Shown here piece by piece: positions 6,465 through 58,164 of a stretch of DNA of 64,000 nucleotides. The DNA comes from Hormiphora californensis (Eukaryota > Animalia > Ctenophora). The stretch is taken from assembly GCA_020137815.1 (NCBI GenBank), contig CM035353.1:8866001-8930000 (forward strand). The letters are read 5' to 3'. Positions within the stretch are counted from its first letter, which is position 1. Every line of letters starts with the position of its first letter. Both the position numbers and the translations under genes were made by a program. The notes below the pieces were generated by a model. It was not told the DNA's origin and did no database searches. It saw nothing but the letters and a program-made list of their open reading frames with translations.

Positions 6465-7451
6465 TCATACACATTCAATGACTCCCTTTCTCAACACATA
6501 TTGTCTCGATGGGTTCTCAGCTCTCAGTTTCTGTAAAGTCTCAAGAGTTCTACGTCTCTCTGCTCGCTCCTCAATCGTCCGATCAGGACCCAAAAACACC
6601 TTGCTGAATAACTGAGACTTTTTCAAGTCCTTAGCTTTCCTCAGAAGAACTAATAGACTATCATGAGAAGCTAGTTTGGCGATAACTGGCCGGGCCTTAC
6701 CCTCAGATCTGGTTCCAAGCCGCCTGCAATCTGTAAAAGGAAACTTCTCGTGTAGCTCCTCCATAATTCCAGTCACTGCAGCATCCGGGCTCTCCTCGTC
6801 ATCAGCCTCCTCAAGGTTAAAGATAAGAAGATTCTTGTTCCTATCAATATCTTCCACAGCATCACGAGCAGGAGAAACTGTCCTCTGTATCACAGCTTGC
6901 AACTTAGAGGGCGCAACTGCTGCGGCACAATTACTGGAAACTACAGCTGACCAGGATTTCATTTCACGCTGCACTGTTTCGGTCACTGCCCGGGCTGTAC
7001 TGATATCCTCGTCCTGTAACTGGATGATCTTCTTCTGTAGCTGGATAACCTCTTTCTGGCAGTCTCGCAACTCCTTCTCCAGTCCACGCACAACGTCCGT
7101 GTCCTCAGTTTCCTCCTCCACAGCACCAGTATCCGCTCCTTCCTCTTCATCCTCCGGCTCACTGGGATCCTTGGAATTCAGCTCATCACGCTCTCTCTTA
7201 GCAGCGTCAACCAGCAAAGGCAAACATTTCTTGACTAATAGCTGAGACATAGTAGATGTGTAACCAAACAGAACATTAGAAGGCTGATTCTTGATACTCA
7301 GTATCCTCAACAACTCCTCAACCATGAACCCCGTCCAGCTTGTCAAAGAAATCAATGGCAAAACACTAACCCCCAATGAGAAAACATGAAGAACAGCCAT
7401 TAAGAATGAGTACCGAAATCTAGTCAGATCGAAAAGGACATAGAACGGCAT
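6465..7451 (-). CDS. LINE ORF1-like protein (coiled coil plus RRM/CTD), transposon-derived
   Basis: Heptads LEKELRDCQKEVIQLQKKIIQLQ followed by RNKNLLIFNLEE...RLG...RPVIAKL...VFLGPDRTIEERAERR, typical of CR1/L2-type ORF1; true start may be an internal Met; no ORF2 follows. Confidence 0.78.
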   Translation of the reverse strand: MPFYVLFDLTRFRYSFLMAVLHVFSLGVSVLPLISLTSWTGFMVEELLRILSIKNQPSNVLFGYTSTMSQLLVKKCLPLLVDAAKRERDELNSKDPSEPEDEEEGADTGAVEEETEDTDVVRGLEKELRDCQKEVIQLQKKIIQLQDEDISTARAVTETVQREMKSWSAVVSSNCAAAVAPSKLQAVIQRTVSPARDAVEDIDRNKNLLIFNLEEADDEESPDAAVTGIMEELHEKFPFTDCRRLGTRSEGKARPVIAKLASHDSLLVLLRKAKDLKKSQLFSKVFLGPDRTIEERAERRRTLETLQKLRAENPSRQYVLRKGVIECV

Positions 7452-7459
7452 TTTCGAAC

Positions 7460-7823
7460 GCAGAGATGAGAGACAGCGAGACTTTCAAACGCACGATAGT
7501 TTGAGAAACGAAGGACAGAGAGAACGCGAGAGAGAGAGAGACGAGGAGAGAGAGATGCAGAGAGACTAGAAAGAGTACGAGAAGCGAGAGAGTACGAATG
7601 CGGAGAGAGCAGCACGAGAGAGAGAGAGAGATGAGAGACAGACGATGGATCGAGAGAGAGAGAGACGAGAGAGAGAGAGATGAAATGAGAGAGCAGAGAT
7701 GAGAGAGAGAGAGGAGAGAGATGAGAGAGAGAGAGAGGAGATGTAGGAGAGCGAGGAGTTTAGAGGAGAGACGAGAGCGTCAGCTGGGATGAGAGAGAGA
7801 AGAGAGATTGGATGATTTTGAGT

Positions 7824-8382: not shown

Positions 8383-8840
8383 ACTTACTTACTTACTTGA
8401 TACTTGGTTCGGTCTCCTCAATCATTCGAGTGGCCGGCTTCCGGTATCCTCACTCTTAGCGTCGTCAGCCGTCGCCACTCCTTTCTATCTGTCGCAATAT
8501 TAGTAACGGCACGGGAGATTGGGACCGTCCCGTAGCATCTCGGAAGTCATTGAGCACACAAGAGGGCTATGCTTTTCGTGGTCTTCCTCTCTAACGTTTG
8601 CCATGAGTAGGTAATAGGTGCCCAATTATAAAGCCTGTTAGGAACCCTGTCCTCAGGCATCCTGACCACATGACCAAAACTGAAACCAACGGATGAGAGC
8701 GGCTCTATTCCAGCTCTCTCCAATACACAACAGTCCTGGGCCTGAGTGGTGGTCCAAGCTTCACAACCATACAGGAGAATCGTCAATACAGCAGCCCTAT
8801 AAATCCGAATTTTGATAGTCAGAGTTTTTGATATTCACTC
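8383..8840 (-). mobile_element. Decayed 3' fragment of an RTE-clade LINE
   Basis: KIRIYRAAVLTILLYGCEAW, FGHVVRMPEDRVP motifs; (TAAG)n tail. Confidence 0.8.
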
Positions 8841-8910
8841 TGCGGCTGAACAAATGAACCAGACGGGTATAATGTCGCAACAAGTTTCGAGGATCTACCT
8901 CTTCATCGGG

Positions 8911-8946
8911 CTCAAATTAATTTGTTTAAAGTAGTGTTGAAAAGTT
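8911..8946 (-). other. Genomic copy of ctenophore-type SL exon, fused to a hammerhead-like core (8872-8910)
   Basis: Minus strand AACTTTTCAACACTACTTTAAACAAATTAATTTGAG then C-CCGATGA-aGAGGtagatCCTC-GAAAC; no GT donor after the SL; SL identity from recall. Confidence 0.75.
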
Positions 8947-9248
8947 AGTCTGAAGCCAAATGTAAGAAGGTGCGGGCAAGCGAACTTTGACTTTTTGCAA
9001 TATTTATACCAAAAAATCGCTTTCCAGCGCCAATTTTATCTGTAAAACGCGCAACAGGGTCGAGATTTAGAGCTCTGTTGCGCGTTCTGGGGCCATAAAC
9101 ACGGCATCTCGCGAGCTGACCGGAATTGACCCCATTGGTATTGAAGATACTTCACACTCTGTTTGGCGCACCGGCAAGAGAGGGGTAACTTTGTTACCAA
9201 GATTTTGATTCATCTAACTATTTATATTAACATCTGGCTCAACCTCAG

Positions 9249-9487
9249 GTCATATGGGATACGGTGATGGTGTATGTTCTAAAGAAAAACCGGTTCAAGG
9301 ACCTAACATTAGGGGCCGATACGCTCGAGACCTCCGTGGGGATAAAGACGTGCTTTGGGAATTTACTAATGATTCCGATTATAGTAACACAGGATCTGAT
9401 AACGGTTTAGGGCACTACAGCGAGAAGCAGAGTTTCATTGGTCTACAAAACAAGTTTCGAGATTCTAAGAGTATGAATCTTAAATAA
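9249..9487 (+). CDS. Host gene A terminal exon
   Basis: cctcag| acceptor, phase 1, GHMGYGDGVCSKEKP...SKSMNLK*; AATAAA overlaps the stop (9483-9488). Confidence 0.65.
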
Positions 9488-9648
9488 AGGACTAATTGCG
9501 AAAAAGAGTGTTAAAAATTGAAATGTCAATAATATTGTTTTGAACCAAAATTTTTGCCCATTTTCACTGTTTTTTCTCACTCGCCAGTACTACAGGGTGT
9601 TCACACTTCACTGTTCATTTTAGAATTAGAAAAATTTCATGTATTTAG

Positions 9649-11201
9649 CAGGGTGGCCCCAGCACGGATTTTTTGGGGGGGGGGGTGGTGTGGCCGAAGG
9701 CCACACTTCAACTCCAAACTTAACGACCGAGGCCGAGGGAGCTGCGGCAGGGGGTTTGGGGGGCGCAGCCCCCCAACGGGGTCCAGGGGCAGAGCCCCAG
9801 TGCGAACATTGTAAAAATCTGCAACGAATCTGAATTTTTCGTCAAATTTATGCGTCAACGATTTTTTGTCAAAATTACCATTTAGAGGGGTTCGTTTTAT
9901 TGTCCAATTAACGTTTCAATTATTACTTGTTACAGTTCTGTCGCACAAGATCAAGAAAGTTAGAAAACGAAACAAAAATATTTCTGAAAAAATTTGTCGA
10001 CACAGAGATTCGAACCCATGATGGAGTCGGGTACTCGAATTCGTGTCATATCGTTAGACCGTGCGACCATGGAGGGATTGTATAACTGACAATTCACATA
10101 AATTTATACTACTGTGTGTACACAGTTCACGATTTGACGCAGTAACCATATATGGCAACAAGTTGCTATAGCAACTTGTTGCAGAAATCGAGTTGAGTGG
10201 AGTTCAGGGGGAGAAGAATTCTGTTGCAACCGAGTTTGAACTATCATGTGCTACGAATAAAGAAGAATTCTCTCTCAAGAAAATGTTTGTGTAAAATTTC
10301 ATACTTCATAATACCAAGTACTCAATTAATATGGCCCGTGCATGTCCTTGCTGGGTATATTGGGCTTCATTAGTAATCATAAATAGTTGAATATGCGTGC
10401 GCGTCAACTGAAACACAAGGAAAGTTTCTATTCTGGAATTACAAAAAAGTGTCCTGGTATTAACTTGAGCTAGATAACTCCGCGTGCACCGTGTGACATT
10501 ACGGTTGGTAACCCCCATACATGGGCTCTACCCCGGTTGGTCCAAGACGGTACACCAAGTGCTAGGTGCCCATGTGGCCCCCTGGCCTGCTGGACAGATG
10601 AAGAAATGCAATTTTTGTGTTTCTTTTTGGTAAAATTTGCAACGAACTAAATTCGCGAATTCGTACAATGTTCGCACTGGGGGCAGAGCCCTTGGTGGGG
10701 GAGAGGGGGCGAAGCCCCTGGAAAATTTTGGTTTTTGATGAATTATAAGCAATTTAGAGCAACTTTTTAACACTTTTCAGCTCTTTTAGAAAACTTTTTC
10801 AACGAGTTTCAGTCACAAGGGGCGAAGCCCCCGGAAATTTTGATGAATTAAAGCGATTTAGAACAATATTTTATCGATTTTCAGCGCTTGGTGGGGGCAA
10901 TTTTCAGCCCTTTTAGAAAACTTTTTTAATGATGTTCAGCCCCTGGTGTGGGTAAGGGGCGAAGCCCCCGGAAAATTTTAGTTTTTGATCAATTTTAAGC
11001 AATTTAGAACAATATTCTAACGATTTCAGCCCTTGGTGTGGGTTGGGGGCGAAGCCCCCGCAAAATTTTAGATTTTGATCAATTTAAAGCAATTTAGAAC
11101 ACATTTTAAAGCTATTTTACCACCCCCAACAACCCCTGTTTGAAAAGTTTTGGGGGGGTGGCCACCCCCCCCCCCACCACCCCAGGCTGGGGCCACCACT
11201 G
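9649..11201. mobile_element. Non-autonomous hAT-like DNA transposon
   Basis: Imperfect TIRs CAGGGTGGCCCCAGC / GCTGGGGCCACCACTG; 8-bp TSD GTATTTAG (9641-9648, 11202-11209); internal GGGGCGAAGCCCC tandem units. Confidence 0.85.
9995..10072 (-). mobile_element. tRNA-derived SINE-like head
   Basis: A-box-like TGGTCGCACGGTCTAA and B-box GGGTTCGAATC; no clean cloverleaf. Confidence 0.45.
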
Positions 11202-11229
11202 GTATTTAGCGTGAGCCAGTTAAAATTTA

Positions 11230-13698
11230 CCGTAATCTGGGGTAGCTTGGTTTTGCAGGGTAACTTAGTAGATATAGTAGAGAATACCGGCGGCTTCTAG
11301 GGTTGAACAACATGTAAAACACGGTGGTTTGTTAACTGTTTCGGCGTCAACGCCTTCGTCAGAACTAAAGAAAATGGAAACTTTACAAAATAATAAATAT
11401 ATATCTCGTTAGATCAACTAAAATTATTACTACGACACAACTAAAGACTAAAACGACCAACATTCGGGGCCTGGCAAGGCCCCCCGACCCGAATATAACC
11501 CAAACTCAACCCATCCCCCCCTAAAACACCCCCCCCCCCCTAAAACTAAAACAACGGGGCCGAGCCGACAGGCCCTTAAGAAAAAAAACCATAAAACCAT
11601 AAAACCATAGATATTTTTTAGAGTGAAAGTTTTGAAGCCCCCTGAAGTAGTAGAGAGGTGTTCTATGGCTCGTTGGAAAGGTCTCGAGGTCCCGCGACGT
11701 ATAGGGGGTGTGGCGATGGCCATACCCAAACCTATAAGGGGTAGGACGCGAAAAACAGTCAAAATAAGGGGTATACAGAACTCGGCAATTAGAAGGAGTA
11801 GAATGGTGTTCTAGGGTGCGTTCGAAAGCTCTCGAGGTCCTGAAGTAATTGGAATGTAATTGGAAGTAATTACATGTAATTAAAATGTAATTACATGTAA
11901 TTAAAGGGTAATTACATGTAATTAAAAGGTCTGCATGATCCCAAATGACAATTCAGACATATTTTGACATATTTGGAGGCCCTGAGACCAGCGGGTGGCC
12001 AAATTTAATCCGGTTTCGGGTCGGCTGACGTAAAAACTCCGCGTTTTGGTCGAGGTATACTAAAAACGACTAAAACGACCTAGAATTACTAAAACGACAA
12101 ATAACCACTGAACCCGAAACTAGAGAATTAACTATGAAACAAACACACGGGTCAAAAACGGGTCAAGAAAAGAGAGGGGGAAGAGAGAGCAAGGGAGGTG
12201 CACCCAAATATGGTACATAGTAGAGAGAGAGAGAGAGATTGTGATATAACAAGTATCTGGAGAGTGAGAGATATTATACATGTGTACTGGTAATAATTGT
12301 TTTAGTAGTTTCCCATAGCAGGGCGATTTCTCAAGAAGAGCGGTTTCTCGTTAGAGCGGTTTCTCATTTAGAGCGGTTTCTCATATAGAGCGGTTTGTCA
12401 CGAAGACCAAGCAGGCAATTTAATGCTAGATTGATTCAAGCATTGTATGTCTCTTAAATTTCTTTATAGAAACTTTCCTTGTGTTTTGGCAAAGCAACTA
12501 GACTATGGGGTATTGAACTCAGAACTGAGAAGAAATAAAGGGAAGTGGATATATCGTGTGATAGTACCAAGGAAAGATAAGGATTGCGGTCATTGAGAGG
12601 GGGAATGAATGGAAGGGAAGTAGGGAAAATTGGGAAAAAATTGTTCTGAGATATTGACCAAAAGGCTACTTTTCGGGAAATATGTTAGGGGGCCACCACC
12701 TTTTTTTTGCCCATTGCCCATTGGGCATTTGCCCATTGCCCATTGCGAATTTTGGTTTTGCCCATATGGGCAAAAATGGGCAAAATGGGCAAAAGTGGGC
12801 AAAAATGGGCAAAATGAAATTTTTAGTGTTTTTTGTTGTTTTTTCAACTCTATAACTTGATTTTAATTCTTTAAAGTGAGAGAGAAAAGCCCTGATTATG
12901 ATAAAACACACCAAATACCATTCTGACCGAGTTATATCAAAATCAGGGCTGTTCACTTTCACTCTGAATAAGTTAAATCAAGTTATAGAGTTGAAAAAAC
13001 GACATATAACACTGAAAATTTCATTTTGCCCATTTTTGCCCACGTTTGCCCATTTTTGCCCAAAGTCCCACGATTTTTGAAAATTCAGTTTTGCCCATTA
13101 TATGGGCAAATATGGGCGAAAAAAAGGTGACGCCCCCCCCCCCCCAATATGTTAACCTCCAATATTTTGTGAACCGCTAGGGTTTACACGATGAAACTTT
13201 GCAGTCACGCTCTCCTTGGTTTCTACTGTCTCAAGTCATCCCTCGTGTGATTTATTGAGGTTAACTTCGATTTTGGGGCAAAAGTTAACCTCAAATTTCG
13301 CCTTAACGGTGCACGCTAAAACGATTCCAACTATTCCATCAGGACTTCTTAGATCCGTCGACCCCCCCCCCCCCTCTGGCCTTAAAAAGCGGTTTTTAGG
13401 GTCCAACTTTGAGGGGCTGTAGCAAAAATATGAATTCGAGTTAAGGGCTAAAATTGCATATATTTGAGGTCTGCTTGACATGCCCTACAACCCCATATGG
13501 AGAGCTAAGCGGGTACTCGACAAAAATTTCGCCGAGGTGTACCCTTAAATGAGAGGTGACCTAAAACTAAACTAGTTATATCTGGTGTACTGGGTCTAGA
13601 ACAGGATTATTTGGTTCAGAAATTTTCGAGTGTGGTTCTGGCAAGGAATTATTTTAGGAGAATGCTAAAAAGTGGAACAAAGTTACCCCAGATTACGG
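11230..13698. mobile_element. TA-flanked TIR element carrying nested insertions
   Basis: TA|CCGTAATCTGGGGTA ... TACCCCAGATTACGG|TA. Confidence 0.7.
11328..11369 (-). ncRNA. Minimal type I hammerhead ribozyme (Penelope/retrozyme type)
   Basis: tttagtt-CTGACGA-a-GGCG ttga CGCC-GAAAC-a-GTT-aacaaa: intact core, 4-bp stem II, stem I pairing, minimal stem III. Confidence 0.65.
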
Positions 13699-14237
13699 TA
13701 TTCAAGAAATGCACCCTATAATCGAGAACTTTGTCTCCGCAAAATTTCAACTTCGAAGCTTTAACCGTTTTCAATAGCTAAGCTCCCGGGATTTTGGTGG
13801 TACATATATATCACTGCGCTGGTAAGCGTAAAGGTGGCCCCAATCGCCATCCCCTTCCCAAAAACTTTTCCCGAAAAAGTGGCCCCGCTTGCAAACAGCG
13901 TAGATAAAACAATTTCGAAGTTTGGCACATTTTGGCACTTTTCGATTCCCCATAACTCCAAAACCAGATGAGCTAGAAAGCTGAAATTTGGTACTAAGAA
14001 GCTTCATATTTTTTTTTTTTATTGGAAGAAGTTTCAAACGGTTACGGAAACAATTCGCATTTTTTAGAGATCAAATAATATCACACGCCGTTATATCGTT
14101 GTTGCCACTAGACTAGATTTACAGTTAGAGAGGGGAGGCGCCGCGAGGAGAGTAGGCGACCCGCAGAAGTGGCAGCGGTATTGCAATTGGAACATTCATG
14201 TGATGAGTTGGTGAAGTGATGTGGGGTGATGGGAAAA

Positions 14238-14560
14238 TCATAGAATATTATCGATATCAATATAACCGAAAAGGTTGAGCTTGAGCTTAGTCAGAAAGAT
14301 GGGTAAAGTTTCACTCTGTCGAAGTTCGTATGGCAGCAAATTCCAGGACCTGGTAGTCCTGTGGAAAAAGCTGTCACGCAAAGTAGAGGAGCACTTGTGA
14401 CTGTTACTCGTGTCCACAAGGGTGGTACGGTCTAGGCCAGCAATAATGTCACGATTTTGACGCGTAGGTCGAAGATCGGCAACATCAACTGGCCTTATAG
14501 AATCAGGAATGTCAATCTGTACCATATATAAACCTCTACAGTGTGGGGATAGGCAGGTAA
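14238..14560 (-). pseudogene. CR1/L2-group LINE ORF2 3' fragment
   Basis: RDSFFHRTTRSWNLLPYELRQSETLPIFLTKLKLNLF. Confidence 0.75.
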
Positions 14561-14587
14561 TCACTGCGCTGGCAAGCACATCATCAG

Positions 14588-14630
14588 CTCAAATTAATTT
14601 GTTTAAAATAGTGTTGAAAATTTTGAAACT
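14588..14630 (-). other. SL exon copy fused to CTGATGA plus hairpin
   Basis: AGTTTCAAAATTTTCAACACTATTTTAAACAAATTAATTTGAG|CTGATGA-TGTGCT tgcc AGCGCA; the GAAA half is missing. Confidence 0.75.
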
Positions 14631-14637
14631 GTTTCAA

Positions 14638-14703
14638 AGTTTCAAACTTTTCAACATTACAAATTCATTTGAGCTGATGATTACGTTACACGTCGAAACC
14701 GTC
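14638..14703 (+). other. Degenerate SL exon copy fused to a hammerhead-like core
   Basis: AGTTTCAAACTTTTCAACATTACAAATTCATTTGAG|CTGATGA-ttACGT tac ACGTc-GAAAC-c-GTC. Confidence 0.68.
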
Positions 14704-14880
14704 CCGATTATATTTTCCCGAAATAAGATCTCCGACTCGTCTGTAGTCCTAAATAACCACTATTTTATTGCATTTTTGGCCAAATTTGGTCCATTTTCCC
14801 AAATTTTCGTTAGAAATTGAGTGTGTCCAACTGTTATTAATTCAAATTTTATCGTTATAGTGATGATATGTCGGTGAAAG

Positions 14881-22059: not shown

Positions 22060-23096
22060 ATCTACTCCATCTCTCAGCTATCATACCCCTCATCAACTCG
22101 ATCTCTCAGCTACCCTACCCCAGACCCCTCATCTACTCCACCTTTCAGCTACCCTACTCCTCGTCTACTCCATGTCTCAGCTACCCTACCCCTCATCTAA
22201 GTACTCCTTCTCTCAGCTTCCCTGCCCTTAATCTTTTCCATATCTATGCTTCCCTAGCCCTCATCAACTCCATCTTTCAGCTACCCTACCCCTAATCTAG
22301 TCCATCTCTCCGCTACCCTACCCCTAATCTAGTCCATCTCTCCGCTACCCTACTCCTCATCTACTACATCTCTCAGCTACCCTACCTCCTATTTTCTCCA
22401 TCTCTCAGCTACCCTACCTCCCATTTACTCCATCTCTCAGCTACCCTACCTCCCATTTACTCCATCTCTCAGCTTCCCTAGTCCCTACCTCCCATTTACT
22501 CCATCTCTCAACTACCCTACCTCCCATTTACTCCATCTCTCAGCTTCCCTACCTCCCATTTACACAATCTATCAGCTTCCCTACCTCCCATTTACTCCAT
22601 CTCTCAGCTTCCCTACCTCCCATTTACTCCATCTCTCAGCTTCCCTGGCCTGCCTCCCATTTACTCAGGGGTATGTTAGGATAAATGAGAGATGGAGTAA
22701 ATGGGAGGTAGGGAAGCTGAGAGATGGAGTAAATGGGAGGTAGGAAAGATGAGAGATGGAGTAAATGGGAGGTAGGGAAGCTGAGAGATGGAGTAAATGG
22801 GAGGTAGGGAAGCTGAGAGATGGAGTAAATGGGAGGTAGGGAAGCTGAGAGATGGAGTAAATGGGAGGTAGGGAAGCTGAGAGATGGAGTAAATGGGAGG
22901 TAGGGAAGATGAGAGATGGAGTAAATGGGAGGTAGAGTAGCTGAGAGATTGTGTAAATGGGAGGTAGGGAAGCTGAGAGATGGAGTAAATGGGAGGTAGA
23001 GAAGCTGAGAGATGGAGTAAATGGGAGGTAGGGTAGCTGAGAGATGGAGTAAATGGGAGGTAGGGAAGCTGAGAGATGGAGTAAATGGGGGGTAGG
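22060..23096. repeat. Minisatellite CCATCTCTCAGCT(A/T)CCCTACCTCCCATTTACT in two opposing arrays
   Basis: Forward array to ~22666, reverse array from ~22687; related units at 39865-40052. Confidence 0.9.
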
Positions 23097-25840
23097 CTTT
23101 AAAAGCGCTTTATAGCGCTTTGTAGCGCTTTTAAAAGCGCTTTCAAAAGCGCTTTAAATTGCTACAAGAATCGCTTTAAAGCGCTTTTAGCAATTTAAAG
23201 CGGTGCGCTTTAAAGCGCTACAAAGCGCTATAAAGCGCTTTGAAGGGCCTAAAAACCCAAATTTTATTTATTTATTTTGAACACTCCATTGTAACAAGCA
23301 TGCTATTGGAGTCCCAAAAAACATAGGTACACGCCACACGGGCCCCAGGTGAGCCCAGGGGGAGCCACTCAAGTTGGGGCCCATTTGGGGTCCCCTTGTA
23401 AACGCGGTTGTACTCCTTGAAATGCTAACAATATGATGCTCTCTCAAATATAAAATTTCGGATAGAAATGATCCTTGTGTTTTAGTAGATTTCATAATCT
23501 TTTTCATCAATTATTATTTAAGCCTATCAAAACTAGGAGAAAAATTACCAGAATACAGAGACAAGAAAGATTATGTACTCACCTGAAACACAATGCTGAA
23601 TTTTACCCAAAACTTCAAATTTCAGAGAGGATCATATTGTTAGCATTTCAAGGAGTACAAGCGCGTTTACAAGGGGACCCCAACTGGCCCCCAACTTGAG
23701 GGGCTCCCCCTGGGCTCACATTGGGCAGGTGGGGCGTGTACCTATGTTTTTTGGGACTCCAATAGCATGCTTGTTACGATGTAGTGTTCAAAATAATTAA
23801 TAAAATTTGGGTTTTTAGCGCTTTAAAGCGGTCGAAAATGTTCAGCCCAGAACTACCATATTACCGTGAGAGATAATGAACAGTAAAAGAGAGAATGAGA
23901 GAGAGAAACGAATGGAATGCGATTATTTTGCCTCTTGAGTCAGAGCATTGGCCTGGCTGCAGTTGCAAGTACATGTCGGTCGTTCCCCCTCTCAGCATTT
24001 CTTCTACTACCTAAACAGTGTGATATCTCCAATTACAGACAACACCCACATCACTGCCCCAGGACCAGGCAATTATAATTTTCCTCCTAGCCCTATCTAT
24101 CTTGCTCCCGCACCCCACTCCGTCCCCTTACTCTAAGATATAATTATTATCAATTATTAAACCATAATTTTTTGTAGCGCTTTCAAAAGCGCTTTAAAGC
24201 GCTATATAAAGCGCTTTAAAGCGCTTTATAGTGCTTTCGAAAGCGCTTTATAGCGCTGTAGGGGGCGGTCCTAACCGCCACCAGGCCGTGGCCCGGACTG
24301 TAAAAAGCCACGTATGCACAAGACATTGTACTAAATGTATAGTACCCTGTGCAAGTGCCTGGGCCCCCTACGGAGAGTCCCTGGCTCTCCGTCCATATAG
24401 AGAACTAATGTTAGGACAGCCATAACCAATGACCGAGTCGACAAATGAAAACAAACGATATACGTGTAAAAGAGGAGATCTCCCCTTGTCTCGGTGGCAA
24501 CGGCTCTAGTATCCATGGACTAACCACTACACTACTCAACCAATACAAGTCCAACTGATACACCAGCCGCAACCACTGGGCCGCCGGGAGATCCCCTTTC
24601 GGAAACTCTGACACGCCGCCAGGATTCCTATATAAATCTCCATTTAATACTCCCTCTAAATATACAAATATAAGCACTCACTCAATCCATGCTCAACATA
24701 AAGTAATGATATAAACTAAACACTCGTGTCTCTCCAATACTCCCTCTTCTCTGAACTAAACACTTTTCTACTCCTCCTCTCATGTCTTGGCTACCTCCTT
24801 CCCAATAAGGCATATATCAATCCAAAACTACCTCCACCAAGCCCTACAACACTGCTACCTCCACCAAGCTATACCTCCACCAAGCTATACCTCCATCAAG
24901 CTACACAACACTGTTCCACCCTGTATTGTGGCCTACTATCAATGTTAGCAATATAGCCGCCCCCATTGCGAGACCCAAGCTGACAATATAAGGAAGTTTG
25001 GCCGCAGGACAAACTCCCTTTGTACAATCCAATCTAGCCGCTCCGTACACCAGCTCCGTTGCAGCCATGCAGAAACCAGCTTCTCATACAAATCAATCTA
25101 CCTCTCTCTCTCTCTTTCTCTCTTAATAACTCGAGTGGTGATCTAAAGCCCATTCAATGTAGCAACGGCCGCTCTAACCTCTAGTATAGATAATAATAGT
25201 TCGTTGCAAAATATAATACTAATGGTTGATGTGCAGCCTGCACCCACACAACATATATACCGAAACATATTAGGACACTATATATATGAGGAATTATATA
25301 GGGACTTGAAGGAGCAAGCAATGCTTGTCAGTTGCGTGCCCTACAGCGCTATAAAAAGCGCTTTAAAGTGAGAGAGAACAGCCCCGATTTTGATGAAACT
25401 TGGTCAAAATAGTGTTTGGTGTCTAATTAGAAGTCAAAAAATTTTTAGTGCTCAAATCCTAAATTTAGGATTTTTAGGTTTTTTAGGTTTTTCGGCTTTG
25501 ATGGGTTTCAGGAACGTTCTAGAACAAAATGAATAAAACCATCTTTCTCGGCATTAAATTCTGCATCGATTATAGTGGTTATAAACCTTTCTATGACGTA
25601 AGGTTCAGAAGTTATCGCGAAAAAGCCCAAACGGGTACAACCTAAAAATCCTAAATTTAGGATTTGAGCACTAAAAAAGCGCTTTATAGCGCTATAAAAA
25701 GCGCTTTAAAAGCGCTTTGTAGCGCTTTTAAAAGCGCTTTCGAAAGCGCTTTAAATTGCTACAAGAATAGCTTTAAAGCGCTTTTAGCTTTATAGCGCTA
25801 TAAAGCGCTTTCTCAAACCCTTTAAGCGCTTTAAAGCGGT
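23097..25840. repeat. Element rich in AAAGCGCTTT palindromes, hosting nested insertions
   Basis: AGCGCT clusters at 23097-23240, 24175-24256, 25346-25365 and 25677-25835; 23818-23940 is duplicated at 25827-25950. Confidence 0.65.
24257..25345. mobile_element. Solo LTR (Gypsy-like)
   Basis: TGTAGGG...CCCTACA termini, 4-bp TSD GCGC, ~1.09 kb, no convincing ORF. Confidence 0.72.
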
Positions 25841-31735: not shown

Positions 31736-32244
31736 GAGTCTGGGGCCCACGCCCAAAATAGCGAAAAACGAAAACATTTGACTGCTCCTGCCGTGTGCTG
31801 TGACAGGTGGGGAGTAGGATACTTTGTTGGAATAGGGTAGTGATTTGCGTTGGTGCAACTCCTAGTCTGACCTTTTGCAATATCCCTACAATGTTTTTTG
31901 AGATCAGATTGGGAAGGGCTAGGAGAGAGAGTTTTCTAAAAATGGGTTTGGTGTGAGTGGGAATCTTATTATTGGATGGATTAAAAAAGAAATTTACGTG
32001 GTCGGGGCTAATTGCCCGTAAGGCCTTTTTTTGTGCCGAGAATAGATTAGAGAGGCGGGAACATATTTTGAGGTCCCGAGACTAAAGCAAAGCAAGGTGA
32101 CTATGCACGCCCTCTGTACAACAGTTTTAATGGGGAATCTCACACATACACGGGCAGAACTCGGTTAAGGAGAGATTAATTAGTATTCTGAATAATGAGT
32201 TCAGAGCAAGAATTAAATAGGGAAGAAAATCGAAAAATACTGGG

Positions 32245-32335
32245 TTTGACCGGGAATTGAACCAGGGACCCCCAGAGAGACATGCTCGGAGCTATAAACC
32301 ACTAAGCTACCAAACCCAATGTACTGATCGCATTT
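32245..32335 (-). mobile_element. tRNA-derived SINE head (family also at ~33245, ~48485, ~63410)
   Basis: TAGCTTAGTGG A box and GGTTCAATTCCC B box; several dispersed copies. Confidence 0.6.
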
Positions 32336-33660: not shown

Positions 33661-34630
33661 TTAAGGCGGGTGGAATTCCCGAACGCCTTGAACAAGTTTT
33701 CTCCACGCATCACGTTCCTCCATAACTGAAGCTATCTCCTTCACATCTCCCAGACCCGTATCTTGCCGTAGAACATCCACAAAGGTTTTCGAGGGCCTGC
33801 CACGTTTACATTGACCGTGAGTAGGCTCCCAAAGGAGGACTTTGTGGAGTGTCAGCTCTGAGTGCCGTTGTGCATGTCCGGCAAGTCGTAGTCTTCGTTC
33901 CGCTATTTTAGTGCTGAGAATGGGTAACCCTCCAATACCATACAACGTGCCATTAGTCATGCGGAGTTGCCACTGGTTCTTGTTAAGTGCCATTCTCAAC
34001 ATACGAGTATAAGCTCCATTCAAACTCTTCTCCATTTGTTTGGTTAGGGTCCAGGTCTCACATCCGTATAGGAGAACGGTTTCGACAGTAGCAACGAATA
34101 ACCTACACTTGAGTTCGTCTTTAAGATCTGAGTTCCAGACTTTCTTCAAGCCGTGGCAGGCAACCCATGCCTTACTCTTCCGGTTCTTGATGTCTTTGTT
34201 CGAATCTCTGATCCACGAACCGAGGTATTTGAAGTCATCGGTTGTTTTGATGGTGTGTCCGTCACAGGTAAGAAGCGGCTCTGGATCTGGGATGTTCTCC
34301 ACTATGAGCTCCGTTTTGTTCTGGTTAATAGCCAGACCAACCTCCTTACATACCGTTTCAACCTCACGAAGTAAAACCCCTAACTCCTCAACCGAGTTTG
34401 CCAGCAGGGCCACGTCGTCCGCGAAGCCAGTGTCAGTAACTCTGGATGCCCCAACTCTCCTACTCCTAGCAGGTCTCAGAGTGAAACCGATCTCCGGGTG
34501 TCTACTGAGTGCTATCCGTAAGCAGTAGTCCAGCACTATGATAAAGAGATACGGGGCTAGTGTGTCGCCTTGTAAGACACCAGCCACGATCTCAAATATA
34601 GCAGTAACGCCGTCAGCTGTAATAACTTTG
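33661..34630 (-). pseudogene. RTE reverse transcriptase, C-terminal half
   Basis: GVLQGDTLAPYLF, FADDVALL, FKYLGS, LLYGCETW, LRLAGH, RGRP motifs in one open frame. Confidence 0.9.
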
Positions 34631-37600
34631 GGTAGTATGGTAGTTAAGGTCGTGCGCACTTTTTGGCGCCATTTGGCGCCAAATTGGCGCCATTTTGGCG
34701 CCACGTGGCGCCACGTGGCGATATTTTAGCGCCAAATGGCGCCAAAATTTGGCGACTGCGCACAACCGCCAATTTGGCGCCAAAATGGCGCCAAGTTGGG
34801 TAGTCCCGCCATGGCGGTAGTCAATCGCCACATGGCGGTTGCAATCGCCATGTGGCGGTCGGGAGTGGCGCCATACCACGGAAGTGGCGCCATACATGCT
34901 CTGGCGGTACTTAGATGGCGGTGGAGTTTGGCGCCAGTTGTTGAATTTGGCGCTAACTTGTGGCGCCAACAAAAAAACCGATTTCTGGAGTGGCGCCACA
35001 CCACTGGAGTGGCGCCACATAAAAAAGTGGCGCCACTCAAAATATTTTGTAACGCCAACATATGGCACTGTTTGACTACCGCCACCGCCATCCTTATTGG
35101 CGCTAACGTATACTGGATGGCGCCAACATTTATGTGGCGCCACTCTTGTATGGCGCCATAAATGTTTGGTATCGAAGACACCTCACACTCAGGCCGCATC
35201 GCGGCCTTCGTTTGGTGCGCTTTGCGCGCCGGCAAGGGAGGGGTAACTTCGTTACCAACATAAATGTGGGCTTTTTACCGTTTTTTGCTAATTTTGAGCA
35301 CCTTTAAAGCCAAACAACGGCTAAACGGTTGAAGATGGAGCTTAAAAGTCCGACGTCGACCCCCCATAACTTGGCCATTGCCTACAAAATTGCACCAATG
35401 AAAAGTCTCTAAACAATTCCTACGTGGCTATGGAGGCGCATTGTCGCATTGTGCGCGTCTCAACACATAGTGTCTCACCTCCATAGCCATATAATAGCCT
35501 TAAACGGTTATGTTTAAACCTAATTATCCAATTATCTAATTAACCGGATGAGATAGAGACTTAATTTCAGCACCTACCCCCACTAATTCGAGAACGCTGA
35601 ACATTTCAGTGCCCCCGGTTGTGTCTCTACTCCTTTCCTAACATGGCTATATATAGCCATATGGCCAGCAAACGGCTATGTACAGGTCTAATTATCCAAT
35701 TATCCAATTAACCAGATGAGATAAAGACTTTATTCTGGCACCTACCCCCACTAATGCGAGGACACTGAACACTTTGGTGCCCTTAATTTTATCTCTACTC
35801 CTTTCCTAAGGGTAGATACAGCGTTTTTCTCCTTATGCTCAATTACCAATCAATTGGGCTCGGCAATGTCCATATGGCGCCACATGATCATGTGGCCCCA
35901 TTATCATGTGGCGCCATTAATGTGGCGCTAATGTGTGGCGCCGTTTGACTACCGCCACGACAACGGTTGACGCCACACACATACCACTTGCATACCGCCA
36001 GAGTTTTTAAAATGTGGCGCCACTCCAGTGGTGTGGCGCCACTCCAGAAATCGGTTTTTTTGTTAGCGCCATAAGTTGGCGCCATATTCAACAAATGGCG
36101 CCACACGCCACCGCCATCCAAGTACCGCCAGAGCATGTATGGCGCCACTCCCGTGGTGTGGCGCCACTCCCAACCGCCATATGGCGTGTTTGGCGCCAAA
36201 ATTTTGCCATGTGGCGATTGACTACCGCCATGGCGGGACTACCCAATTTGGCGCCAATTTGGCGCTAAGTTGGCGATTTGTATCTAATCGCCAATTTAGC
36301 GCCAAATTGGCGCCACTTGGCGCCATTTGGCGCCACTTGGCGATAGGAATTCCTCTGATGGACGTTATGAATATTTGGAATTTTAGGTACTATCGCCAAT
36401 TTGGCGCCAATTTGGCGCCACTTGGCGATGGACACAGTTTATTCAGACAAATTCGCATCGCCACGTGGCGGTACCGCCAAATACCGCCAACACTTGGCGA
36501 TTTACAATCGCCACGTGGCGCCACTTGGCGCCAAAAAATCGCCAACTTGGGGTAGTCCCGCCATGGCGGTAGTCAATCGCCACATGGCGGTTGCAATCGC
36601 CATGTGGCGGTCGGGAGTGGCGCCATACCACGGAAGTGGCGCCATACATGCTCTGGCGGTACTTAGATGGCGGTGGAGTTTGGCGCCAGTTGTTGAATTT
36701 GGCGCTAACTTGTGGCGCCAACAAAAAAACCGATTTCTGGAGTGGCGCCACACCACTGGAGTGGCGCCACATAAAAAAGTGGCGCCACTCAAAATATTTT
36801 GTAACGCCAACATATGGCACTGTTTGACTACCGCCACCGCCATCCTTATTGGCGCTAACGTATACTGGATGGCGCCAACATTTATGTGGCGCCACTCTTG
36901 TATGGCGCCATAAATGTGGGCTTTTTACCGTTTTTTGCTAATTTTGAGCACCTTTAAAGCCAAATAACGGCTAAACGGTTGAAGATGGAGCTTAAAAGTC
37001 ACATAGTGTCTCACCTCCATAGCCATATAATAGCCTTAAACGGTTATGTTTAATTCTAATTATCCAATTATCTAATTAACCGGATGAGATAGAGACTTAA
37101 TTTCAGCACCTACCCCCACTAACTCGAGAACGCTGAACATTTCAGTGCCCGCGGTTGTGTCTCTACTCCTTTCCTAACATGGCTATATATATAGCCATAT
37201 GGGCAGCAAACGGCTATGTGCAGGTCTAATTATCCAATTATCTAATTAACCAGATGAGATAAAGACTTTATTCTGGCACTTACCCCCACTAATGCGAGGA
37301 CACTGAACACTTTGGTGCCCTTAATTTTATCTCTACTCCTTTCCTAAGGGTAGATACAGCGTTTTTCTCCTTATGCTCAATTACCAATCAATTAGGGGCT
37401 AATTACACACCTTCCCCCAAATAATTGAGACTGACATTTTGGTTTTTTATGTTCAGGGGGCCTATACCTAGAATTTACAACCGGAATTGGCTTGCCGCTA
37501 GTGAGTTCTATGTCGAAACACGTTTTGACAGGCTTATGTAGGTGACACAGACAACTTCAAAAAATGCGCTCACGGAAGGGCTCATTCTCGGCAATGTCCA

Positions 37601-38703: not shown

Positions 38704-40524
38704 CAAGGATTTTAGACTACCCCGAACACGCAGCCACGCTTATCTCAGTTTTTTCCTATCTGCACTTAAGACATTCTGCAAATAGCTGTCTCATTTTTGC
38801 TTTAGACATATGAGGGACCTGGTTCCATAATGGTATATGTGCAGATGGGGGGGGGGGGCGTCACCTTTATTTTTGCCCATAGCCCATAATCCCAGCGAAT
38901 TTTGGTTTTACCCATATGGGCAAAAACGGGCAAAATGAAAATTTCAGTGTTTTTTGCCGTTATTTCAACTGTATAGCTTGATTTCAATTCTTTAAAATGA
39001 AAAAAAAACAGCCCTGATTTTGATAAAACTCGGTCAGAGTGGTCTAATTAGAAAATAATTGTTTAGTGGTCAAATCGTAAATTTGGATTCTTTAGGTTTT
39101 AGGCTTTTAGTTTTTTAGTTCAGGGTTTCAGAAACTTTAGGTTTTAGGCTTTTATTTTTTTAGTTTAGGGTTTTAGAAACGTCCTAGCACAATTTAAATA
39201 CAAGCATCATACTCAGCGTGAAATCCTGTGTTCTGACAAGAGGTTCGCCCGGTAGCGCTAAAACAGTGCTCGTTTGGGTTTTTAGGGATAACTCCTGTAC
39301 CTTACGTCATAGATAGGTTTATAGCCACTGTGATCGAAATAGAATTTCACGCCAAGTAAGATGCTTATGTTTATTTTGTTCTAGAACCCATGAAAGCCTA
39401 AAAACCTAAATAATCCTGAACTTAGGATTTGAGCACTAATTATTTTGACTTCTAATAAGACACCAAAGACCATTCTGACCGAGTTTTATCAAAATCAGGG
39501 CTGTTCACTTTCACTTAAAAGAATTGAAATGAAGCTATATAGTTGAAAAAACGACATATAACACTGAAAATGTCATTTTGCCCACGTTTGCCCACGTTTG
39601 CCAATTTTTGCCCAAAGTCCCACGATTTTTGAATATTCAGTTTTGCCCATATATGGGCAAATATGGGCAAAAGAAAAGGTGACCCCCCCCCCCCCCCCCC
39701 GTGCAGATATACCAAAATGGAGATACATAACAGTAGTATATATTATGCCAAAAACTAACAGAAATTAGTTGGCTGGAAAGGTGACTAATTTTGTTGGCAA
39801 ACTGACACCTTTGCCCTCTACGGGTTTCATCTTTATCTTTCCCTTTCTGATTTCTCTCTCTGTGGGTAGGGTAGCTGAGAGATGGAGTAGGCGAGGGGTA
39901 GGGTAGCTGAGAGATGGTGTAGATGAGGGGTAGGGTAGCTTAGAGATGGAGTAGATGAGGGGTACGGTAGCTGAGAGATCGAGTACATGAGGGGTAGGGT
40001 AGCTGAGAGATGGGGTAGATCAAGAGTAGGCTAGCTGAGAGATGGAGTAGATGCATCTGGTTCCTGAGATATGGCCCCCTAAAGAGTTGGTGTCTCAAAC
40101 TGCTGAATAGGGGTCACGCGAGGAGAATGGGCATCAGTTTGCGTGTACTGCTCCGTTTTTCATGGGACTTTTTGTGCTGTTGCACCTCCCCCGCGCCAAT
40201 ACAAGGGACTTTAACAAGGGGGAAGGCAAGAGTCTCAGCTATTGCATGGTATCCTTAAATTTTGTGCTAAATCTAAAATGACTGAGCAGCATGCTTGTTT
40301 ATTAACCTTGGCGTGTTTGCTCGTATCGCAAGCACGCTCGCGACTAGCAAACACGATATGCAGATCACACCCTGTTATAGAGTCATTTGACTACAAAGTT
40401 TGCTGAAAAAACCCGAAATTCCTCATCAAATAGCATTTTGCCCTACTGTGCACTGGTTTATAAATTGCGTCATAGCAGTGTTATGCTTGTCCCTTTACCG
40501 ATAACCTTATATCTTTGTTACTAG

Positions 40525-54618: not shown

Positions 54619-55959
54619 CACGGCGTGCCTGGTGAAATTTTAACACGACCTAGCATGCGACGGGAAACCACCACTTGTACGTGGTAGCTGAGGGTCTACA
54701 GAATGGCGCTACGGTGCGGGATAAAAAAATCCATTCCCTAAAATCTTTTTTTTTACTTTTATTTGATTTGGGTCAAAATTGGCTATATTAAACGTGGTCC
54801 CGAAAAATCCATAATGACTTAGCACACGAAATATGTCACCCCCACCTATTTGTGCACGTAGAATCGATTGCCGTTGAAGTCGAATCTCTAAAATGACTGT
54901 AAAATGGTCAAAAGTTGATTTTTTACCATTTTTTGGAGGTTTTTGGCCCCTAAACCATTGAAAACGTTGAGATAGGAATTTGAAACTTGTGCCAATCATT
55001 AAAATGGTCATTTTTCTACCAAGAACCAAGTTTTCGTGTATATCCGATTTATGGTTAGATTTGGGCAAATTGTTGAAATCTGCCAACTAGGAGAACCGTA
55101 ACTTGATTTTCTTGTTTTTTGGATTTTGGCATTTTTGACAAACTTCTGATTGAAATGGTCAATCGGGACCATGCTTAAGTTGTTTATGGGACAATTTTCG
55201 ACTAAAATCCAAGATTTCATACCAATCCAATAACAGATCGTTGATTTATAGAAAATTTAAGTAGGCAAAACGGTCAAAATAAGCAAGAAAAGTTGTTATT
55301 TTGACCGTTTTGCCTACTTAAATTTTCTATAAATCAACGATCTGTTATTGGATTGGTATGAAATCTTGGATTTTAGTCGAAAATTGTCCCATAAACAACT
55401 TAAGCATGGTCCCGATTGACCATTTCAATCAGAAGTTTGTCAAAAATGCCAAAATCCAAAAAACAAGAAAATCAAGTTACGGTTCTCCTAGTTGGCAGAT
55501 TTCAACAATTTGCCCAAATCTAACCATAAATCGGATATACACGAAAACTTGGTTCTTGGTAGAAAAATGACCATTTTAATGATTGGCACAAGTTTCAAAT
55601 TCCTATCTCAACGTTTTCAATGGTTTAGGGGCCAAAAACCTCCAAAAAATGGTAAAAAATCAACTTTTGACCATTTTACAGTCATTTTAGAGATTCGACT
55701 TCAACGGCAATCGATTCTACGTGCACAAATAGGTGGGGGTGACATATTTCGTGTGCTAAGTCATTATGGATTTTTCGGGACCACGTTTAATATAGCCAAT
55801 TTTGACCCAAATCAAATAAAAGTAAAAAAAAAGATTTTAGGGAATGGATTTTTTTATCCCGCACCGTAGCGCCATTCTGTAGACCCTCAGCTACCACGTA
55901 CAAGTGGTGGTTTCCCGTCGCATGCTAGGTCGTGTTAAAATTTCACCAGGCACGCCGTG
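54619..55959. repeat. Long palindrome: 664-bp arms, 13-bp spacer
   Basis: Arms 54619-55282 and 55296-55959; the ORF track gives identical mirror ORFs about centre 55289. Confidence 0.95.
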
Positions 55960-56493: not shown

Positions 56494-56744
56494 TGTGTAT
56501 CAAAAATACGGAAAAAAATCATAAAATACAAAAAACACAAAAAGATCTTCTTGGCTAGGCGGCCCACAGTGTATCATCGCCAACTACTATGTTCCTACCC
56601 CGCCTTCTCCGGCTTAGGGTTACCCGTGGAACAGGCACCTTCCAGCCACCTGTGGACCTCCAATGCCCCTTTATCTACTAACCCACTAACCAATCCTGTT
56701 ACTAATCTACTAACCCCCTAACCCTTTCCAGTACCCTGTTCCTT

Positions 56745-57872
56745 AGAGGATAGTTAACCCCGTTCCAGAGGGGATAGTTTACCCCGCTCCACAGAGGATA
56801 GTTACCCTGTGGACCTCCATTGCCCCTTTATCTACTAAACCACTAACCATCCTGATACTAATCTGCTAAACCCCTATTCCATTTCTTTATTAGGGTCTCG
56901 ATCCAGTTAGGGTTGTACCCGTTCAGAGAGAATAGTTTACCCCGGTCCAGAGAGGATAGTTTACCCCGTCCCGGAGAGGATAGTTTACCCCGCTTCACAG
57001 AGGATAGTTGCCCCGTCCCAGAGAGGATAGTCCCCCATACCCCGTTCCTGAGAAGATAGTTTACCCCGTTCCAGAGAGGATAGTTTACCCCGCTTCACAG
57101 AGGATAGTAGCCCCGTTCCAGAGAGGATAGTTTACCCCGGTCCAGAGAGGATAGTTTACCCCGCTTCACAGAGGATAGTAGCCCCGTTCCAGAGAGGATA
57201 GTTTACCCCGGTCCAGAGAGGATAGTTTGCCCCGCTTCACAGAGGATAGTTGTCCCGTTCCAGAGAGGATAGTTTACCCCGTCCCAGAGATGATAGTTTA
57301 CCCCGATTCACAGAGGATAGTTGCCCCGTCCCAGAGAGGATAGTCCCCCATACCCCGTTCCTGAGAAGATAGTTTACCCCGTTCCAGAGAGGATAGTTTA
57401 CCCCGCTTCACAGAGGATAGTAGCCCCGTTCCAGAGAGGATAGTTTACCCCGGTCCAGAGAGGATAGTTTACCCCGCTTCACAGAGGATAGTAGCCCCGT
57501 TCCAGAGAGGATAGTTTACCCCGGTCCAGAGAGGATAGTTTACCCCGCTTCACAGAGGACAGTAGCCCCGTTCCAGAGAGGATAGTTTACCCCGGTCCAG
57601 AGAGGATAGTTTACCCCGCTTCACAGAGGATAGTTGCCCCGTCCCAGAGAGGATAGTCTACCCCATACCCCGTTCCTGAGAAGATAGTTTACCCCGTTCC
57701 AGAGAGGATAGTTTACCCCGCTTCACAGAGGATAGTTGCCCCGTCCCAGAGAGGATAGTCTACCCCATACCCCGTTCCTGAGAGGATAGTTTGCCCCGTT
57801 CCAGAGGGGATAGTTCACCCCGCTCCACAGAGGATAGTTGCCCCGTTCCGGAGAGGATAGTTTACCCCGTTC
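56745..57872. repeat. 21-29-bp minisatellite GAGAGGATAGTTTACCCCG(T/G/C)TCCA in the 5' UTR
   Basis: Contiguous variant units with higher-order repetition. Confidence 0.92.
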
Positions 57873-58164
57873 CCGTTGATCATAATGCTTCACACTGGCC
57901 CCTGTCCCAGATCCACCATATAGACATATTATATAGATACACACCCGTACGCTGAAAGTGTCGGTTCGTGCTGAAAAGCTGCAAGGATGGACGGGCAAAC
58001 CATCTACTAACGGACCAAATGTGGCGGTGGGATTCCGTTACCGCTGCTCACCGGTGTCAGTGTTAAGACCCCCAAACCCGGCTCTTCTTTCAACAAACCG
58101 ATGACTATGAATATACAGTGATTGGTTTGAAACTCACCCCCAAAACTTACTCATCTTATACGAC

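Follow-up and report, generated by a model that had tools for sequence, protein, structure and literature searches.

An SL (spliced leader) exon is added only by splicing onto a sense RNA, and it marks the cap. The window, i.e., the whole stretch of 64 kb from Hormiphora californensis analysed here, holds exactly three SL copies in its DNA, each joined to the start of a hammerhead ribozyme core (Table 1). How did these joins arise, and what do they report about the elements that carry them? An earlier note on this DNA had suggested that the RNAs of a ribozyme retroelement system are trans-spliced at an acceptor in helix I and then reverse transcribed into the genome.

Leader copies and their junctions

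The leader in the window matches the published ctenophore SL, which confirms the identification made in the earlier note. It heads unrelated mRNAs at metagenome SL loci, where it lies at most 24 nt from the contig end in 108 of 120 cases, and Pfam families were matched in 65 of the 83 SL-led open reading frames (ORFs) scanned. In the window, every copy leads, after a gap of 0-1 nt, into CYGATGA, and GT follows none of them, as had been claimed. Hence, the GT donor and intron part that follow the exon in an SL RNA gene were found at 0/3 copies. The SL-then-CYGATGA pattern has three matches in the window, compared to a mean of 0.08 in shuffled sequence, and none of 100 shuffles gave three. The SL-hammerhead junctions are genuine.

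The proposed enrichment of cores downstream of the SL holds for the window: CYGANGA occurs at offset 0-2 in 3/3 copies vs 0/116 true metagenome SL loci (Fisher p 3.7e-6, or 1.4e-4 if the copies are counted as two events), a control that consists mostly of mRNA 5' ends rather than genomic SL copies. Of the five control loci with an internal full leader, three or four are LINE-type and not one shows a hammerhead core. Genomic SLs therefore also come from sources other than hammerheads, perhaps for the most part, and the idea of a dedicated SL-ribozyme system has to be given up, as LINE-type elements are also headed by genomic SL copies. The SL-plus-core pattern gave three matches in viral contigs, all without the remaining leader, and none in prokaryote genomes. 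A 21-nt leader pattern gave no viral match and three bacterial ones, attributable to chance.

Table 1 Features of the junctions and of the third hammerhead family, in window positions
Feature	Position	Strand	Remarks
Decayed RTE-like LINE ORF remnant	8733..8816	-	tblastn with the window's own RT ORF
Candidate target site duplication (TSD), downstream copy	8846..8856	-	11 nt with 2-nt gap
Inferred whole insertion 1	8857..8949	-	about 93 nt; bounded by candidate TSD
Minimal hammerhead 1	8877..8910	-	1-nt spacer; core at 8909 (U4 to C); bulged A; 4-bp stem II
Hammerhead 1, predicted cut	after 8879	-	two helix I pairs, including SL's last G
SL exon copy 1	8911..8946	-	3' 36 nt of leader, exact; no GT donor downstream
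Candidate TSD, upstream copy	8950..8962	-	13 nt
Multi-copy short element carrying hammerhead 4	11265..11425	-	approximate extent
Minimal hammerhead 4, unspliced layout	11331..11365	-	consensus core at 11362; 4-bp stem II
Hammerhead 4, predicted cut	after 11334	-	3-bp inner helix I, third pair via acceptor G
Predicted 3' splice site	11365..11412	-	AG 11366-11365; pyrimidine tract; CTAAC 11412-11408
Element stub	14578..14587	-	10 nt; core start only, without stem II or GAAA
SL exon copy 2	14588..14630	-	43 nt, 41/43 identical (2 substitutions); left arm of head-to-head pair
Palindromic head-to-head junction	14622..14646		perfect palindrome centred on 14630
SL exon copy 3	14638..14673	+	2 substitutions and 7-nt deletion; right arm of head-to-head pair
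Minimal hammerhead 3	14674..14704	+	core directly on SL; G10.1 to U
Hammerhead 3, predicted cut	after 14703	+	one helix I pair (SL's last G)

Hammerhead motifs and the insertions that carry them

Complete cores (core, 4-bp stem II, GAAAC and GUH) were found at 8909(-), 11362(-) and 14674(+), whereas 200 block shuffles gave a mean of 0.035 and a maximum of one. Measured against CUGANGA-H, a G-C-closed stem II, GAAA and NUH, the motif at 11362 agrees in full, and those at 8909 and 14674 have one deviation each (U4 to C at 8908; G10.1 to U at 14682). Helix I was absent from the search pattern; its inner positions are nevertheless Watson-Crick in 6/6 cases across the three motifs (1-3 bp per motif). 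All three have a G at -1 opposite a C, and SL's last G, judged by sequence, can pair in helix I as an acceptor G would. All three also have a purine opposite position -3, which would suit a YAG acceptor and not SL's GAG. The bulged base after A9, the G-C closing pair, the short near-palindromic helix III and the U-rich 5' flank match the consensus of metazoan Penelope-like elements (PLEs), so that the three motifs appear to fit minimal type I PLE hammerheads, the anatomy proposed in the earlier note. No Rfam hammerhead model matched the window or positions 11300-11400, so that the check suggested there was negative; this is not read as a refutation, since helix III is missing from minimal forms. 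Folding gave z-scores of 0.4 to 1.3, which do not stand out. Every motif is single in the window, in contrast to the tandem repeats, each with a hammerhead, that define retrozymes. Two look-alikes were rejected: a core-like match at 6644 inside an ORF and without GAAAC-GUH, and a resemblance to hammerhead 1 at 9467-9449 (E 0.06) in the opposite-strand open frame of a host exon.

Insertion 1 extends about 22 nt beyond the predicted cut site. Its candidate TSD is moderately significant, with an equal score in 54 of 2000 random window stretches; no convincing TSD was found for the other elements. The insertion probably went into or beside a LINE ORF remnant, which shares 50% over 28 aa with the window's RT ORF (E 2e-4).

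The copies at 14630(-) and 14638(+) lie head to head across a perfect palindrome and for this reason are most likely a single insertion, the first copy being followed by 10 nt of element. This leaves two events where three had been counted. In the right arm, 8 nt of the SL 5' end are duplicated in tandem, and the inverted repeat with palindromic junction at 14578-14704 is of the kind found in PLEs. Three unrelated stem II sequences had been taken as a sign of recurrence. Two unrelated families do show the join, but the 14630(-) copy has no stem II: the hairpin after it runs into a different repeat, other copies of which depart from the window sequence at 14577. In run X22, which may be DNA rather than RNA, four contigs track the window through the SL and 10 further nt, beyond which they part from it; the sole differences in one of them are the two to be expected within the SL. 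The ATG in the hammerhead 3 core (14677) starts a 47-codon frame whose peptide had no relative in peptide searches.

Hammerhead 4 is unrelated in sequence to both SL-fused families and represents a third one. An AG lies two bases before its core, and CTAAC at 11412-11408 is branch-point-like. The acceptor layout of an unspliced precursor, claimed earlier, is thus present; as a separate family, however, hammerhead 4 is an analogue of the SL-fused motifs and not their precursor. Contigs of two runs depart from the reference at about 11265. The family also occurs in a second organism, in which a high-depth contig retains the acceptor side. No SL was seen at the 18 loose ends of the family listed out of 57, nor, within the same scope, any single family in both spliced and unspliced form. 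Between 11362 and 11367, depth falls from 21757 to 5518 in run X5 and from 3896 to 2111 in X1, and goes from 1869 to 1830 in X7. The fall in X5 and X1 fits SL fusion of many copies and equally 5' truncation or contig-end effects, and is not counted as support. RNA runs X13, X14 and X22 have no coverage of hammerhead 4, which is not evidence of absence.

Origin of the junctions

The joins are probably (at roughly 70%) short retrocopies of the 5' end of trans-spliced, uncut PLE RNA. PLE terminal repeats would hold a 3' splice site within helix I or next to it, comparable to the one at 11366 and with a precedent in cis. The host trans-spliceosome would use this acceptor and place a capped SL 0-2 nt before the core. 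The product would begin like any ordinary ctenophore mRNA, and in one family an AUG follows after 3 nt. That the RNA was copied without self-cleavage is partly shown, because SL, core and the sequence after the cut site are contiguous in DNA. Following PAc biochemistry, the PLE RT would start shortly downstream of the ribozyme and proceed to the cap, yielding insertions some 90-160 nt long. A head-to-head SL pair may result when the new strand, once at the cap, folds back or meets a second strand. Unspliced RNA would be copied too, as in the hammerhead 4 family. Among 8 scanned window ORFs and the 83 SL-led ORFs, no PLE RT or GIY-YIG ORF was found, a point against this reading; short solo copies are expected to lack one. 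The claim of trans-splicing at a helix I acceptor followed by reverse transcription is thus supported by exact joins at the exon end, by the register of helix I and by cis-splicing in Penelope of D. virilis (PMC4209133, in the part available). The proposed swap of stem I that turns cleavage off holds for the outer pairs, which change, but the inner 1-3 pairs are retained because the terminal AG of the SL matches that of an acceptor; the claim is weak. Monomers of minimal hammerheads are, moreover, reportedly inactive, and PLEs copy uncut RNA in any case, in the accessible parts of two studies (PMC4209133, PMC11167929). Since the SL removes only outer pairs, a weakening of cleavage rather than a clean switch is predicted.

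Alternatively, each family took up the SL a single time and has since passed it on in its DNA as the 5' part of small, non-autonomous SL-hammerhead elements of SINE- or retrozyme-like kind, with no ongoing trans-splicing. Among the loose ends listed, no family was observed both spliced and unspliced, and inheritance of a captured SL is conceivable, given that PLE terminal repeats are remade from RNA. Retrozymes have, moreover, been proposed as non-autonomous PLE derivatives (bioRxiv 10.64898/2026.07.22.740005, accessible part). We consider this unlikely: the same exact join occurs in at least two unrelated families, a third retains the acceptor at the same register in two organisms, the motifs are single, unlike tandem retrozymes, and trans-splicing would still be required at the origin.

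Template switching of the RT onto SL RNA or an SL-led mRNA, as in U6-LINE chimeras, would leave the element RNA unspliced. In its favour are the structural complexity of PLE insertions and the great abundance of SL-bearing RNA, which makes up 56% of long reads. However, 3/3 joins lie at the exact exon end without any SL-intron or mRNA sequence, and their register matches AG pairing in helix I, which makes such a switch quite improbable.

NeSL and SLACS/CRE elements target SL genes. Insertion of hammerhead elements beside SL sequences already in the DNA would be favoured by the hundreds of genomic leader copies (718 and 491 in two ctenophores, source not given; PMC8527503) and by an RT ORF of restriction-like-endonuclease type in the window (58111-61815). 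It is hardly credible, as the candidate TSD of insertion 1 encloses the SL, both arms of the inverted junction consist of SL, and no SL is near the RT ORF. Chance resemblance of retrocopied mRNA 5' ends, in which an AUG beside the SL mimics a core start, would account for the stub at 14587 (a core start and nothing more) and is in line with an ATG at most 8 nt from the SL in 32/120 metagenome loci, but it is largely refuted by CYGATG at offset 0-2 in 0/116 loci and by two copies with full core, stem II, GAAAC, GUH and helix I.

Copying of trans-spliced PLE RNA would also have practical consequences. As the SL needs splicing of a sense RNA and marks the cap, SL-fused copies report template strand, maturity, 5' end and cleavage state. 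They are a single tag, countable in any ctenophore assembly, that would show which strand PLEs copy. Some of the 718 and 491 leader copies (PMC8527503) could be accounted for in this way, and counts call for caution, genomic SL copies of this type not being SL RNA genes. More tentatively, and with the odds against it, the helix I acceptor may let trans-splicing sort ctenophore PLE RNA into an SL-capped, cleavage-dead form that is translated and copied, and an unspliced, self-cleaving form with a longer helix I that processes tandem precursors, genomic SLs being the record of spliced-sense copying. If so, the ribozyme would be regulated by trans-splicing, and genomic SLs would record PLE copying of spliced sense RNA, with junctions built at the cap.

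Comparison with known systems

The following likenesses are drawn from the accessible parts of the cited papers. Hammerheads of metazoan PLE pseudo-LTRs share with the window motifs the core, the bulge after A9, the stem II closing pair, a tiny helix III and a short helix I, and are mostly dispersed single motifs or opposite-strand pairs (PMC4209133). In D. virilis Penelope, the 3' end of an intron lies at the 5' end of helix I, and cis-splicing at this acceptor gives spliced and unspliced ribozyme forms (PMC4209133, Cervera and De la Pena 2014). The AG is 4 nt from the core there vs 0-2 nt in the window, and the 5' exon in the window is a trans-spliced SL, which the element cannot encode in cis. 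Ctenophore terms are absent from the searched part of that paper's supplement (PMC4209133).

The PAc/Poseidon PLE of Anolis uses unprocessed RNA with an internal start, and its ORF begins at stem II (PMC11167929, Frangieh et al. 2024). A ribozyme at the ORF start, an uncut template and an internal RT start predict short 5'-end copies like those in the window. PAc shows no trans-splicing, in the accessible text, and, in contrast to the window elements, has a known protein partner (PMC11167929).

Head-to-head palindromic junctions and TSDs of 8-10 bp are PLE hallmarks (PMC3846280, Arkhipova et al. 2013). Penelope of Adineta vaga has both, together with solo terminal repeats. For its junctions and intron retention an antisense template was proposed and an unspliced sense template left open (PMC3846280); in contrast, the SL at the head-to-head junction in the window points to a spliced sense template. 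SL capture by rotifer PLEs, mentioned in the earlier note, could not be traced to this paper, the accessible part of which mentions no leader, trans-splicing or SL1 (PMC3846280).

LINE-type elements capture the SL as well. The titles and abstract openings searched hold no account of SL-hammerhead junctions; a precedent outside that scope is possible. In Hydra, about 30% of TE long reads carry the SL (PMC12220107), and dinoflagellate retrogenes include SL-tagged retrocopies (PMC5585692). As is proposed for the window, TE RNAs use host trans-splicing and SL exons re-enter DNA by reverse transcription, but the accessible parts of both studies make no mention of a ribozyme at the splice site (PMC12220107, PMC5585692). 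The value of an SL joined to a PLE-type hammerhead lies in its being a marker of a sense-strand, spliced template.

Leader identity and adjoining hammerhead cores

The earlier note took a motif in the window to be the ctenophore spliced leader (SL). A fuzzy search found three copies and no more, which were compared with the full leader from one SL-led contig. The motif is the leader published for Hormiphora californensis, where it is reported on 56% of long reads and at 718 genomic positions, against 491 in Mnemiopsis (PMC8527503). The 3'-terminal 20 nt of the SL, used in a metagenome scan, returned at least 120 loci (about 210 estimated). The match lay within 24 nt of a contig end in 108 of the 120 loci listed, and 65 of the 83 ORFs scanned matched Pfam families of ordinary eukaryotic genes. 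Published leader, contig-end position and ordinary-gene ORFs therefore identify the motif as the SL, as proposed, and the window as ctenophore DNA.

Features of the window (window positions) and of loci from the metagenome scan
Feature	Position	Strand	Remarks
ORF1-like remnant	6465-7484	-	presumably CR1/L2 type; interrupted upstream by a GA microsatellite
Insertion 1 (SL copy 1 and hammerhead 1)	8857-8949	-	
SL copy 1	8946-8911	-	0 differences in 36 nt from full leader
Hammerhead 1 core	8909	-	SL-fused
Likely host exon	9249-9490	+	open frame; acceptor at 9247-9248
Hammerhead 4 core	11362	-	unspliced layout
Very high-copy repeat	11413-12216		directly upstream of hammerhead 4 element; total depth thousands-fold above single copy
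SL copy 2	14630-14588	-	2 substitutions in 43 nt from full leader
SL copy 3	14638-14673	+	2 substitutions and a 7-nt deletion from full leader
Hammerhead 3 core	14674	+	SL-fused
Inverted arrays of 32-nt minisatellite	22156-23160		related array near 39800-40090
tRNA-like match	32242-32316	-	32.8 bits; may be a tRNA-derived SINE head
RTE-like RT C-terminal fragment (RVT_1)	33661-34725	-	repeated element flanking
Perfect 664-nt inverted repeat	54619-55959		13-nt spacer
Complex tandem repeats	~56727-57868		precede RT ORF
Intact-looking 1234-aa ORF with RT domain	58111-61815	+	C-terminal CCHC and restriction-like endonuclease motif; presumably R4/Dong-like
LINE-type family	L047, L063, L067, L105, first 200 nt past leader		near-full genomic SL at 5' end, differing flanks

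The window search found no SL near the RT ORF. Matches to miRNAs at the minisatellite arrays were spurious, arising from the arrays themselves.

The sequence CYGATGA begins 0-1 nt after the SL in all three window copies, a result reached in none of 100 shuffles. At offset 0-2 it occurred in 0 of 116 metagenome SL loci (the 120 minus four chance bacterial matches), giving p = 3.7e-6 for three copies or 1.4e-4 for two events. This control is mostly mRNA: it rules out chance but does not bear on the share of genomic SL copies linked to hammerheads. The window contains three strict hammerhead cores, compared with a shuffle mean of 0.035, and two of them abut an SL.

The minimal-hammerhead consensus of metazoan Penelope-like element (PLE) terminal repeats comprises a U-rich flank, a short helix I, a bulged base after A9, a G-C-closed stem II and a near-palindromic minimal helix III (PMC4209133). 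Hammerhead 4 matches it in full, and the two SL-fused motifs fit with one deviation each. No PLE ORF was found among the 8 scanned window ORFs, the 83 SL-led ORFs or in peptide searches, so the grounds for PLE membership are the RNA anatomy and the structure of the insertions. The motif at 11362 stands as an unspliced hammerhead with a predicted acceptor, but not as the precursor of the two SL-fused hammerheads, to which its sequence is unrelated.

Pairing in helix I served as an independent check on the motifs. The inner positions are paired in all three hammerheads (2/2, 1/1 and 3/3), and the outermost of these pairs always joins a C to the G at -1; this G belongs to the acceptor (11365) in hammerhead 4 and is the last base of the SL in the other two. 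All three motifs have a purine opposite -3; in hammerhead 4 it pairs the acceptor's U at 11367. Such a purine would pair a YAG but not the G of the SL, and within the sequence itself this is the strongest indication that the SL stands in place of an acceptor. In D. virilis Penelope, the end of the intron is the 5' end of helix I (PMC4209133). In the part of that paper's alignment counted by hand, with the intronless row left out and some taxa related, YAG ends within 6 nt of the core in 16 of 43 rows; as a lead only, an acceptor at helix I may be a wider PLE trait.

Two other SL-led elements (L022 and L118) have in common, 10-45 nt past the leader, a 5' motif that looks like a variant hammerhead core (CYGATGT, GC hairpin, AGAAA). 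Their ORF starts look unrelated; that of L022 begins an ORF sharing 33% identity with the one at 7085-6474 in the window.

Insertions and their probable origin

Trans-splicing at a PLE hammerhead followed by retrocopying is the reading we prefer for the SL-hammerhead fusions, with a probability of roughly 0.7. The SL would be joined at the acceptor beside helix I and the fused RNA copied to its cap, while reverse transcription starting internally on uncut RNA would leave short copies of the element's 5' end.

Insertion 1 is about 93 nt long, adjoins a decayed RTE-like remnant and is bracketed by candidate target-site duplications of 11-13 nt, which 54 of 2000 random stretches equal in score. 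It would lie antisense within the intron preceding the likely exon 9249-9490, across which an RNA contig of run X14 shows no mismatch.

Hammerhead 4 belongs to a multi-copy family. In two runs of the first organism, individual contigs over it are about 14 (X1, 869 vs 64) and 20 (X5, 5008 vs 255) times as deep as a single-copy contig, and the family, acceptor included, is also present in a second organism (X7). Its contigs part from the reference near 11265, about 70 nt beyond the cut site. The main prediction of the preferred reading is that further copies of this family carry the SL at 11365; among the 18 loose ends listed, of 57, none does. Depth across the acceptor drops in two first-organism runs but not in the second organism, which is ambiguous.

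The earlier note had read a recurrent event from three unrelated stem II sequences. The three do not stand as separate events: only 10 nt of element follow SL copy 2, and copies 2 and 3 most plausibly form a single inverted insertion. They point apart across a perfect 8+1+8 palindrome centred at 14630, with 8 nt of the SL 5' end duplicated on the right arm; the first 8 nt of element are common to both, and copy 2 retains a G that in copy 3 would form the closing pair of stem II. Past the 10-nt stub at 14587 lies another repeat, with a second copy at 13810-13827, and other copies of it continue differently after 14577. Four contigs of run X22, which may be DNA, track the SL and the 10 nt of the stub before diverging, a hint, with the mismatch count visible for one contig, that this junction recurs.

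It had also been suggested that the SL swaps one strand of stem I and probably stops cleavage. The SL has a terminal AG, as an acceptor does, so the inner pairs survive; five of the first six helix I positions of hammerhead 4 are paired unspliced and, by inspection, four would be with the SL. With only 2 and 1 contiguous helix I pairs, the SL-fused motifs would be unlikely to cleave. Minimal hammerheads are described as inactive as monomers regardless (PMC4209133). A regulated cleavage switch has a low probability.

Leaders on other elements

A dedicated SL-ribozyme system, as first envisaged, is not favoured, as LINE-type elements carry genomic SL too. In five scan loci, a leader of 40-43 nt is internal to the contig and the upstream flanks are unrelated. 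Related ORFs of 426-434 aa bearing Cys/His knuckles follow the leader in three of them, and an ORF start of weak similarity does so in a fourth; after the ORF of L063 comes the beginning of an APE-type endonuclease (E 0.02, short of the curated cut-off). The elements are therefore likely LINEs copied to their cap, and this family probably supplies another main part of the genomic SL copies. Its 36 related ORF1 proteins are unnamed or 'hypothetical', bar one gene-model id. One of the ORFs is matched at 96% identity by an EukProt gene model that reads through the translated leader and whose id follows the style of a ctenophore genome. In Hydra, the SL is reported on about 30% of the long reads from transposable elements (PMC12220107). 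The hammerhead junction is thus one instance of host trans-splicing of transposable element RNA, with no separate machine.

Template strand and known systems

Literature searches, which did not cover three relevant papers, found no description of an SL-hammerhead junction. Arkhipova et al. 2013 took head-to-head junctions and retained introns as signs of an antisense template, leaving the question open (PMC3846280). The SL at the centre of the head-to-head junction described here can only come from spliced sense RNA copied to the cap. If this is true genome-wide, it would settle the template strand for these elements and show that these insertions arise without ribozyme cleavage. For the Anolis PLE PAc, it is reported that the template is uncut RNA, the ribozyme cleaves only with protein, the ORF begins at stem II and reverse transcription starts 111-118 nt into the ORF (PMC11167929). 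Internal initiation of this kind predicts short copies like those of insertion 1 and the hammerhead 4 family.
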